Shown in pieces: positions 54,387 to 55,364 of a stretch of 64,000 nt of DNA. Made by a program: the position numbers and the translations under genes. Every line of letters starts with the position of its first letter. Position 1 is the first letter of the stretch. The notes beneath the pieces were generated by a model, which saw only the letters and a program-made list of their open reading frames with translations, did not search any database and had not been told where the DNA came from. This DNA is from Pseudomonas phage HHBS18_1, in the sequence record PQ287651.1; one strand, given 5' to 3'.

Positions 54387-54563
54387 TGGCAGGGGTTATT
54401 TTCAAATTATTTTTAGATTTCTGGGAGTTTCGGCCAATATGGGCAATATGAAATTTCTCAGGAAAAGGCTCAGAATGCTCGTATAAGAGCCGTTCGAGTG
54501 TAGGTATGGTGAGCTACTACTTAGCCGTAGAAGGACAGTGTAACGCTTAATAGGAGGGTTAGA

Positions 54564-54737
54564 ATGAAGATTGACAACGGTAGCGCGTATGCGTATTGGC
54601 TAGCGGATATGAAAGAGTTTGTTTCTCAGATGGATGCCACAGAGATTGAGAAGAGGGCTTGTATAGCAGACTTAATTAGCTGGTATCAGCGAAGAGTACT
54701 GCACAGAATTAAACGGGAGGAATACGAGGCGATCTAA
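54564..54737 (+). CDS. small hypothetical protein (57 aa)
   Basis: MKIDNGSAYAYWLADMKEFVSQMDATEIEKRACIADLISWYQRRVLHRIKREEYEAI; RBS TAGGAGGG. Confidence 0.35.
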   Translation: MKIDNGSAYAYWLADMKEFVSQMDATEIEKRACIADLISWYQRRVLHRIKREEYEAI

Positions 54738-54740
54738 GCT

Positions 54741-54829
54741 AGGGACCGGACAGATTTTTAGGGACTGGATAGATTTTCACAGGCTGCAAAATTAGGAACT
54801 GGGCAGATTTTTAGGAACTGGACAGTTTT
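54741..54829 (+). repeat. iteron-like direct repeats: 4 copies of about 19 bp AGGRACYGGRCAGATTTTT (two 52-bp super-units each ending ...TTTTCACAG)
   Basis: 54741 agggaccggacagattttt; 54760 agggactggatagatttt; 54793 aggaactgggcagattttt; 54812 aggaactggacagttttt; phased A/T tracts. Confidence 0.8.
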
Positions 54830-54871
54830 TCACAGAAGGGGATTTTTCTACAGAGGAATTTCCCCTGAAAT

Positions 54872-54951
54872 TTAGCAGGATTTCTCAGAAGGGCGGATCG
54901 TTAGCAGGCTATCTAATTGGTTAGCAAGCTACCTTTAATCGTTAGCACACT
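54872..54951 (+). repeat. second iteron set: GTTAGCA(N)CT repeated at about 21-bp spacing (4 copies) preceded by AATTTC/GAAATT palindrome
   Basis: tttagcagga (54872), gttagcaggct (54900), gttagcaagct (54920), gttagcacact (54941). Confidence 0.65.
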
Positions 54952-55093
54952 AACTAAAAATTCCTAGGACGGACCTCAGTTGGCACGAACGTTGCAAGCC
55001 CGCACCAGTTTCCCGGGCAGGCGTAGGCCTCGACTATCCGTCGTGAAGGCGATATGTAGTTGGGGACTCGCACCCCGCGTTTAAGATGCGCCC

Positions 55094-55122
55094 ATTCTAC
55101 TATGACAAACCCCTTTGTCAAC
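55094..55122 (-). promoter_or_regulatory. minus-strand sigma70-type promoter TTGACA-N17-TAGAAT firing leftward into the iteron region
   Basis: rc of tgtcaa (55117-55122) and attcta (55094-55099); same -35/-10 type as + strand early promoters; no RBS-preceded ORF downstream on minus strand. Confidence 0.5.
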
Positions 55123-55300
55123 ATAATTTTATGGCACAGTCTTTGCAATTGCAATTAGCGTGCCAATCTAAATCTCAGGCTCCCTCCGTGTTTGCCTCCG
55201 GTGCTCGGCCTCCTGCCTGCGTTGCCCGCCTGCCTGTCATTATACACAAGCTATCAAGACAAGCAAGAAAAATTATAGAGAAAAATCTACATAAAACAGG

Positions 55301-55329
55301 TTGACAGGCCTCCTTTATATATGCACAAT
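55301..55329 (+). promoter_or_regulatory. sigma70-type promoter TTGACA-N17-CACAAT (alternative -10 TATATA)
   Basis: consensus -35 upstream of first gene right of the non-coding region. Confidence 0.45.
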
Positions 55330-55364
55330 GATCCCACATTCAACGGAACGGCAGGTAAGCAGCC

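Follow-up and report, generated by a model that had tools for sequence, protein, structure and literature searches.

The subject of this analysis is a stretch of about 1 kb, positions 54388 to 55364, in a 64,000-nucleotide (nt) window of Pseudomonas phage HHBS18_1 (PQ287651.1); "the window" means this whole stretch of DNA, and positions are those of the window unless another sequence is named. Comparison of the window showed that the source phage is a Pakpunavirus resembling PAK_P4, JG004 and LPS-5. We propose, with a probability of about 0.5, that the region is a conserved, almost wholly non-coding control module, which forms a transcription boundary, gives rise to non-coding RNA (ncRNA) and heads the right-hand early ('host-takeover') operon. 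Rightward transcripts of the upstream operon terminate here: the module has an intrinsic terminator, and in phage PAK_P3 3' ends were mapped inside an array of direct repeats (iterons). A leftward sigma-70 promoter (promoter B) gives rise to an ncRNA of ~130 nt, called as16, and transcription of the early operon begins at a rightward consensus promoter. A second leftward promoter (promoter A) is predicted to transcribe a structured RNA having a 5' domain with an invariant GGA loop and purine-rich GGA/GGAGG stretches, and this RNA is a candidate protein decoy, ribosome decoy or antisense RNA. In addition, the RNA polymerase of the host carrying sigma-54 might sit on three perfect sites, as a closed complex when no activator is present, and could act there as a roadblock or insulator, as a competitor of the adjacent promoter B, or as a conditional promoter. 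Jointly, these elements would set the early cassette apart from neighbouring transcription and probably govern when it is expressed.

The locus is strongly conserved. A blastn search with positions 54300-55450 against 50,697 phage records gave 130 matches, all to Pseudomonas phages of Pakpunavirus, including PAK_P4, JG004, PaP1, C11, PaoP5 and LPS-5, with a top identity of 99%. The region was found in all 130 Pakpunavirus records, and at least 80% of its length was covered in 120 of them. An initial annotation, made from the sequence, had described the stretch as poor in genes, and this holds: by a greedy open reading frame (ORF) cover, no other ORF-free gap of the window is as large, the terminal-repeat region at the right edge excepted. 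The repeats and promoters listed in that annotation are likewise all present in the sequence and non-random. New relative to it are the sigma-54 sites, promoter A with its structured motif, and the recurrence of the entire module in other phage genera. Constraint was measured as the fraction of variable columns among 10 Pakpunavirus sequences with identities down to ~86%. The non-coding part varies in 5-18% of the columns, versus 27-52% for the flanking genes and an ORF of 57 amino acids (aa) inside the region (Table 1).

Homologous modules were also found in other phage genera. By blastn, positions 55116-55251 matched Pseudomonas putida phage phiPMW (Plaisancevirus), UAVern and vB_PpS_SYP (SYP) at ~80% identity, and reciprocal and pattern searches added Roomu-2, Bitten, XD2, ventosus, phiPsa315 (Otagovirus) and PAK_P3 (Nankokuvirus). 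Further modules are present on four viral and 13 metagenome contigs, and EM also carries the module. Every match lies inside an ORF-free gap of 450-770 bp, and its orientation with respect to the neighbouring genes is constant. The shared order begins at the left with a terminator or the end of a small gene, followed by three or four ACTGGACAG-T5 iterons and a phased palindrome array; it continues with, usually, a sigma-54 site, then a GC-rich body, the leftward promoter B and a sigma-54 pair, and it closes at the right with an ultra-conserved core, the second leftward promoter and the rightward early promoter. In the myovirus relatives the module is also flanked by the 338-aa and SprT-like genes, and the phiPMW group has different flanking genes; several downstream early genes have a wider distribution. 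The 338-aa upstream protein was considered as a module-linked initiator and rejected, since its synteny with the module holds only within the myovirus family, and phiPMW, UAVern and SYP do not have it close to their modules. A non-coding block of ~500 bp that is better conserved than the neighbouring genes and is common to unrelated siphoviruses must perform something central.

Published transcript data bear directly on the boundary. The leftward ncRNA postulated in the initial annotation exists in PAK_P4 according to published RNA-seq (PMC5563952): the PAK_P4 record, 'based on RNA-Seq data', carries the ncRNA PAK_P4as16, which corresponds to window ~54960-55160 on the minus strand, and which is one of 17 antisense RNAs and more abundant early (Blasdel et al. 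2017, PMC5563952). Promoter B is identical to 'promoter_03' annotated in PAK_P4; both of its hexamers had been read correctly, and its spacer is N16 rather than the N17 claimed. The annotated 3' end of as16 falls at a weak hairpin (54963-54979) followed by UUUUU (54960-54956, minus strand), so that the RNA from promoter B is ~130 nt long and stops just before the operator array. The promoter B hexamers are kept in most genera and are absent from PAK_P3 and phiPsa315. The single-sequence fold of as16 is no more stable than those of shuffled sequences (z = -0.54), and a conserved cross-genus fold of as16 was rejected, with two short helices only, which are weakly supported; the changes from G-C to G-U pairs in as16 fit the minus strand only.

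On the right side, the early promoter corresponds to PAK_P4 promoter_04. The initial annotation had it firing into the host-takeover genes, and it is a genuine early promoter: transcription from the homologue in PAK_P3 was mapped to start at 51049, site P035 (ONT-cappable-seq tables). The PAK_P3 data come from the supplementary tables of a published ONT-cappable-seq study, and RNAs under ~100 nt may be lost in them. On the left side, the terminator of the upstream operon is annotated as such in PAK_P4, and the same tables give for PAK_P3 a plus-strand termination site, T022, at 50625, which is not classed as intrinsic. From -60 to +40, the sequence around T022 consists of the PAK_P3 iteron array. 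Transcripts of the PAK_P3 upstream operon extend at most to 50630-50897, and none of them passes the core motif. The module is thus a strong stop for rightward transcription, and an end inside the iterons would fit a protein roadblock. The PAK_P3 small RNAs sRNA1 and sRNA2 were considered as RNAs of the module and discarded, since both are located elsewhere in the PAK_P3 genome. As a separate observation, a repeat of ~60 bp with a TTGACA-N16-TAGAAT promoter occurs four times in the early cassette (55842-55907, 56375-56430, 59124-59184 and 62494-62556) and resembles a family of duplicated early promoters.

Table 1. Features in and around the region and at the genome end, with the share of variable columns among 10 Pakpunavirus sequences
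Feature	Position	Strand	Variable columns	Remarks
Upstream gene, 3' end			33%	
Intrinsic terminator of upstream operon (338-aa gene)	54362..54386	+		7-bp all-GC stem, then TTTTT; hairpin 54362-54379
Conserved non-coding block 5' of 57-aa ORF	54388..54475	.	10%	contains GAAATTTCTCAGGA, found again at 54866
57-aa ORF	54564..54737	+	52%	strong ribosome-binding site; PHROG 8175; most variable segment of the region
Four 19-bp iterons AGGRACYGGRYAGWTTTT	54741..54830	.	16%	copies at 54741, 54760, 54794, 54813; a T-tract ends each
Spacer	54836..54896		10%	
Palindrome AATTTC-CCCT-GAAATT	54857..54872	.		direct sequence reading
Three imperfect palindromic operators GTTAGC-N2-GCTAAC	54900..54954	.	13%	copies at 54900, 54920, 54941
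ncRNA, PAK_P4as16 homologue, ~130 nt	54956..55087	-	5% (as16 body)	promoter B to weak hairpin and U-run; least variable segment
Sigma-54-type site 1 TGGCACGAACGTTGCA	54981..54996	+		perfect match
Leftward sigma-70 promoter B, TTGACA-N16-TAGAAT	55094..55121	-		TTGACA 55121-55116, TAGAAT 55099-55094; 11/12 match
Divergent overlapping sigma-54-type pair	55132..55165	+ and -		55132-55147 (+), 55150-55165 (-); perfect; share TTGCAATTGCAA
Core structured motif, three short helices	55173..55231	-	18%	59 nt; invariant GGA in terminal loop
Predicted leftward sigma-70 promoter A	55239..55266	-		-35 TTGCTT 55266-55261, N16, -10 TATAAT 55244-55239
Rightward early sigma-70 promoter, TTGACA-N17-CACAAT	55301..55329	+		drives SprT-like gene and early cassette
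SprT-like gene, 5' end			27%	
Start of terminal direct repeat, true genome end	63595..64000	.		alignment to C11

The best-conserved ~60 nt of the module read CAGGCTCCCTCC..TGTTTGYCTCCRGTGSTN..GTTGCCYGC on the plus strand and make up the core motif. In an alignment of 24 distinct sequences, from which the structure was itself derived, so that some bias is possible, the predicted partners pair in 98.1% of the cells, compared with 78% in column shuffles and 17-37% with slid partners. Double-sided changes were seen in five of the nine pairs (41 such cells against 11 expected), and the covariation score was reached by none of 500 shuffles. The stems vary and the loop lengths shift by 1, 2 or 3 nt, and the terminal loop keeps an invariant GGA as read on the minus strand (plus-strand UCC); the minus strand also has a local skew of G over C. 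After the core helices comes a tail rich in purines that holds additional GGA/GGAGG motifs and reads GGAGACAAACAGGGAGGG in most modules and GGAGGCAAACACGGAGGG in the window, giving one invariant loop GGA and two or three single-stranded ones in the core RNA. A covariance model found one copy in the window, at 70.8 bits, and scored the PAK_P3 homologue at 35.5 bits. The predicted start of promoter A, at ~55231, is the first base of the core motif. The -10 element is promoter-like in all genera (TATAAT, TAGAAT, TACAAT or CATACT), several of which have TTGACA/T at -35; TTGACT-N17-TAGAAT, TTGACA-N17-CATACT and similar combinations are found elsewhere. These features suggest that promoter A may be active. 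The motif resembles no catalogued family: Rfam 15 gave nothing better than E = 0.34 in 54000-56000 and zero matches in the modules of nine other phages, and Rfam families including Rsm, CrcZ and NrsZ were set aside, with nothing credible in the region or the other modules. A host origin was rejected as well, since 185,579 species genomes gave four chance pattern matches with dissimilar flanks, and blastn found no match among 72,556 plasmids.

The TTGCAATTGCAA and CCTGCCTG repeats that the initial annotation had recognised in the GC-rich stretch are present. Inverted repeats of the region are matches to the sigma-54 promoter consensus. With the search pattern TGGCAC-N5-TTGCA (-24 and -12 elements, exact spacing), four perfect sites were found in the window versus 0.03 expected, three of them in the region and the fourth at 63729 in the terminal repeat. 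The homologous modules of 19 divergent phages and contigs hold 40 sites with at most one mismatch, versus ~0.7 expected at equal base frequencies. At positions outside the search pattern, Y precedes TGGCAC in 93%, G follows it in 78% and W follows TTGC in 93% of the 40 sites, which are partly homologous and so not independent. The -24 and -12 elements are constant and the 4-5 bases between them are free to change, and the minus-strand copy of the pair is retained in most modules. Genome-wide (the window plus positions 1-32000 of C11), such sites occur in the module (three) and the terminal repeat (six in 1173 bp), plus two strays with one mismatch; some of the sites in the terminal repeat are inside the coding sequence of gene 001. 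An RNA hairpin formed by the pair was considered and rejected, since its 5-nt spacers are without covariation and differ freely, even where two phages are 98% identical; we prefer to read the pair as protein sites. In phiMK (L002 3833-3866), ~5 of 10 spacer positions of the pair differ from those of the window, though the surrounding 1 kb is ~98% identical, and these differences point to local hypervariability or recombination confined to the spacers. The three palindromes stand 60-100 bp upstream of the plus-strand site 1, a typical enhancer distance; in other genera this site faces the opposite way.

The same motif families occur at the genome end. In the part of the terminal repeat inside the window there are the perfect site at 63729 (+), another site at 63930 (-), and GATAGC-N3/4-GCTATC palindromes at 63704 and 63878. 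The complete repeat of C11 (KT804923, 1-1173) has six sigma-54-like sites (135+, 336-, 423-, 615-, 887+ and 1069+) and four palindromes of the GATAGC-N3/4-GCTATC type. The terminal repeat and the module share two motif families, so that the right-hand early cassette has these motifs at either end. In addition, many modules have a conserved block, (TGGCAC-N5-T)TGCTAYNCGYAYRCGCSCGGTYC, just 5' of the rightward early promoter (L007 2671-2710, L009 2685-2725, L048 6946-6985, L010 ~3040-3075); it is absent from the source phage, and in phiPMW, SYP and PAK_P3 it carries a plus-strand sigma-54 site.

The left part of the module holds arrays of repeats. The iteron AGGRACYGGRYAGWTTTT is absent elsewhere in the 64 kb (0.07 expected). 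Four direct repeats had been annotated as two 52-bp super-units; the four copies stand, and the super-units are 53 bp long, 86% identical and spaced 19/34/19. The last copy includes the palindrome AACTGGACAGTT. Arrays of 3-4 copies of the ACTGGACAG-T5 motif are also found in EM, UAVern, Roomu-2, Bitten, XD2, ventosus, phiPsa315 and PAK_P3. The palindrome AATTTC-CCCT-GAAATT, which lies at 54857-54872 as had been noted, is kept within Pakpunavirus and is not palindromic in EM. In the case of the GTTAGCA repeats, for which four copies had been reported, three are good and stand 20 and 21 bp apart, while the fourth is degenerate and lies 29 bp upstream. The GTTAGC-N2-GCTAAC array is also present in EM, UAVern, Roomu-2, Bitten, XD2 and ventosus, and GAGAAT-N2-ATTCTC palindromes take its place in phiPMW, SYP and phiPsa315. 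Judged from these sequences, the iterons and the three phased palindromes could be arrays of binding sites for DNA-binding proteins. Because the palindrome type switches between phage groups, at least one cognate binding protein is probably phage-encoded; for the palindromes in particular, the swap of specificity suggests such a binder. PAK_P3 (L048 6650-6760) and phiPsa315 (L026 1330-1385) have an extra pair of direct repeats, TGTAGCACGTCA or the complement GACGTGCTACA, which is absent from the window and is read as another swapped set of binding sites. Meanwhile, the protein encoded in the terminal repeat (200 aa; window 63924-64000; C11_001/PaP1 gp157) is 28% identical over 131 aa (E = 9e-11) to SYP gp28 (L009 1578-2147), which is annotated as 'DNA-binding domain protein' and lies directly upstream of the SYP module. 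Neither protein gave a Pfam match, and the terminal-repeat protein is a candidate binder of the palindromes or iterons.

Several points weigh against the proposed control role. Site 1 has the plus orientation in Pakpunavirus and EM and the minus orientation in most other genera, and the modules of phiPsa315, L027, L033 and L039 have no sigma-54 site at up to one mismatch. No GAFTGA motif of a sigma-54 activator is present in any frame of the window and C11 1-32000, for which reason a phage-encoded activator is rejected; a host-encoded one is possible. We infer occupancy of the sites by the sigma-54 polymerase from their sequence. In PAK_P3, no start site was called on either strand between 48439 and 51049 by ONT-cappable-seq, so that promoter A and the sigma-54 sites are silent or weak there, or their RNAs are too short for the method. 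The strand signals of the core motif are split, with two G-U cells favouring the minus strand and one invariant possible U-G pair favouring the plus strand. A role as boundary and source of ncRNA is itself compatible with origin function. In line with the absence of starts in PAK_P3, none was detected ~12 nt 3' of the GC element of the PAK_P3 sigma-54 sites, at 50797 (-) and 50946 (+), in this one phage under one growth condition. The module of L043 is without the sigma-54 pair, and other palindromes fill the position of the pair in those site-less modules that were inspected. With site 1 inverted and the pair absent in some modules, the sigma-54 sites cannot be essential to the core function.

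The main rival is that the region is a replication origin, which we regard as possible but tentative, and which could coexist with a boundary function. A phage initiator would bind the iterons, and leftward RNA from promoters A and B would form an R-loop or activate unwinding and prime synthesis. The four 19-bp iterons with phased T-tracts, kept across genera, agree with the usual three or more repeats of 17-22 bp; two or three leftward promoters are aimed at them; transcription from outside is kept from running through the region; apart from the terminal-repeat region, no ORF-free gap of the window is as large; and the non-coding sequence is very strongly constrained. Moreover, the non-template strand is G-rich just 3' of promoter A. 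A G-rich non-template strand favours R-loops. However, as16 ends at its hairpin and U-run before reaching the operators and iterons. The region has one DnaA box with one mismatch, with no cluster there and no enrichment in the window, and no AT-rich unwinding element adjoins the iterons, the lowest GC contents (33-38%) being at 54380-54440 and 55250-55340. By Pfam and PHROG, the neighbours (the 338-aa protein, the 57-aa ORF and the SprT-like protein) have no initiator, helicase-loader or primase domain, and the flanking genes differ in the phiPMW group. There is no similar plasmid origin among the 72,556 plasmids searched by blastn. There is also no GC-skew switch at the region, and for PaP1 the published skew minimum lies at the genome end (PMC3652863). 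Furthermore, the related phage vB_PseuGesM_254 has a published in silico origin of another kind, an AT-rich tandem repeat adjoining a primase/helicase gene (OR575930 70536-70927; L050 1037-1428; TTATATTAATAATTTATA, ~6 copies), which is unrelated to the module and contains no core motif; no comparable AT-rich repeat was found in the window.

The other explanations fare worse. In a T5-like checkpoint of DNA entry, injection would pause after the early cassette and the leftward promoters would then pull in the remaining genome, as T7 A1-A3 do; this supposes that the right end enters first, which would put the module 9-13 kb (10-14%) in. The distance of the module from the start of the terminal repeat (~8.2 kb here, ~12 kb in C11) suits such a pause, as do a repeat- and palindrome-rich non-coding block at the border of the early genes, several tandem leftward promoters that have no coding target, and the bracketing of the early cassette by the module and the terminal repeat with their common motif families. 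Yet we consider the checkpoint very unlikely: there is no evidence of two-step injection in these phages, the early genes of PAK_P4, gp080-gp124, are found both to the left and to the right of the module, as16 is ended by a terminator of its own, a DnaA-box cluster is lacking, and the module of phiPMW lies ~8 kb from the left end of its record with the opposite polarity to that end, although the start of that record may be arbitrary. That the stretch codes for small proteins, namely a 72-aa ORF (55086-55304, +) and a 66-aa ORF (54954-55154, -), is hardly credible, even though both appear in a mechanical ORF list and several GenBank records annotate 'hypothetical protein' here, up to 4-6 per record. 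Both ORFs are devoid of a Shine-Dalgarno sequence, and the 66-aa ORF, which is truncated in EM, begins with a TTG 5' of the point where transcription from promoter B starts. Between genera, indels of 1, 2 and 3 nt occur in the core region together with compensatory stem changes, and such length changes in the core loops rule out a conserved reading frame; the protein-coding reading of the stretch is thus rejected. Finally, the initial annotation had suggested a physical genome end or a packaging site. The likelihood that the region is a genome end, a terminal repeat or a pac/cos site is close to nil: the suggestion drew on analogy with the T7 left-end layout only, and beyond it there are just the sigma-54 sites and GATAGC palindromes common to the region and the real terminal repeat. 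The experimentally mapped termini of C11 and PaP1 correspond to window 63595, ~8.2 kb to the right of the region, and for the same reason the rationale for a packaging site is gone. Positions 1-406 of the 1173-bp terminal direct repeat of C11 align to window 63595-64000, as does the redundant end of PaP1, and the region is internal in C11 (79781-80758 of 94109) and in PaP1 too. The C11 termini were determined experimentally (PMC5175280) and the PaP1 ends by run-off sequencing (PMC3652863), the evidence for the two together comprising run-off sequencing, restriction analysis and read depth (PMC5175280, PMC3652863).

Between the terminator and the ATG at 55365, the 57-aa ORF had been singled out as the only convincing ORF, and it is indeed the sole credible one. 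Nine of 10 divergent Pakpunaviruses keep its frame open, while an in-frame stop codon breaks it in PAK_P4; three strongly divergent N-terminal alleles share one kept C-terminus (LISWYxRRxLHRxKREEYEAI), and unrelated small genes occupy the same position in other genera. It is probably a real small gene, fast-evolving and dispensable, and it is outside the cross-genus module. No tRNA or tmRNA was found in the whole window.

In therapy against Pseudomonas aeruginosa, the Pakpunaviruses and their relatives (PAK_P1/P4, PaP1, PaoP5, JG004, LPS-5) belong to the most widely used phages. A narrow literature search on RpoN or the replication origin in Pakpunavirus found nothing relevant, and the titles and abstracts of the PaoP5 literature on deletion and genome reduction hold nothing bearing on the region. 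The block offers defined handles, namely a possible requirement for RpoN, a new RNA motif and arrays of putative protein-binding sites. If the sigma-54 sites were functional, the early programme of a virulent phage would be linked to an alternative sigma factor of the host. For phage engineering, the module is best left intact, and it is a candidate natural insulator and promoter cassette. A more far-reaching idea, and in our estimate an unlikely one, is that the module belongs to an undescribed two-part phage device, a sigma-54 trap combined with a GGA-loop decoy RNA, on a cassette that has spread among at least five Pseudomonas phage genera. The trap would consist of clustered, largely silent, orientation-independent sites, three here and six per terminal repeat, or ~15 per genome, which replication would multiply and at which the host polymerase with sigma-54 would be kept as closed complexes, and the GGA-loop RNA would be a decoy for an RsmA/CsrA-type regulator or for ribosomes. 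If this were true, the trap would insulate the early cassette on both sides, and its rising copy number would drain sigma-54 from the host regulon.

Comparison with known systems shows partial likenesses in each case. Like lambda ori, T4 oriF/oriG and ColE1 RNA II, the region combines tandem ~19-bp repeats that have phased A/T tracts, promoters firing towards them, and a G-rich RNA directly 3' of a promoter; in contrast to these systems, it has no overlapping or adjoining initiator gene, AT-rich block or DnaA boxes, and its mapped ncRNA stops before the repeats. With T5 iss it shares a large ORF-free block, rich in repeats and palindromes, at ~8-14% from a genome end and at the border of the host-takeover genes that are expressed first. 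In T5, the iss is located where a terminal repeat of 10 kb ends on its inner side, and it has DnaA boxes (Wang et al. 2005; Davison 2015). The phage studied here has a terminal repeat of 1.2 kb and no DnaA boxes in the block, and early genes lie on both sides. The core RNA resembles the RsmY/RsmZ/CsrB sponges in having a short hairpin with an invariant loop GGA followed by single-stranded GGA motifs, the third of which fits CANGGANG in most sequences; it differs in having only one GGA hairpin, no Rfam Rsm/Csr match, and a plain sigma-70 promoter with no GacA box by eye. YuA, likewise a virulent P. aeruginosa phage, has one site identified as a promoter for host sigma-54, which was active in a promoter trap (Ceyssens 2008) and has a mapped start, P015 (Putzeys 2024, PMC10914365); it was the only sigma-54 precedent in the narrow literature search. 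By contrast, the sites here form clusters, include an overlapping divergent pair and sites inside coding sequence, vary in orientation, and have PAK_P3 homologues at which no start site was detected. The closest counterpart is PAK_P4as16, which lies at the same locus (~98% identity), on the same strand and behind the same promoter (window 55094-55121), with its 3' end at ~54960; coverage was the sole basis for its annotation among 17 'asRNAs', it is antisense to no gene, and its function is given as undetermined in a 2025 review. The locus and one of its RNAs are known already from GenBank annotation, and the sigma-54 clusters, the core motif with its promoter and the cross-genus module are undescribed in the GenBank annotations compared and in the narrow literature search. 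The parts are all of known kinds; their combination and distribution are new.

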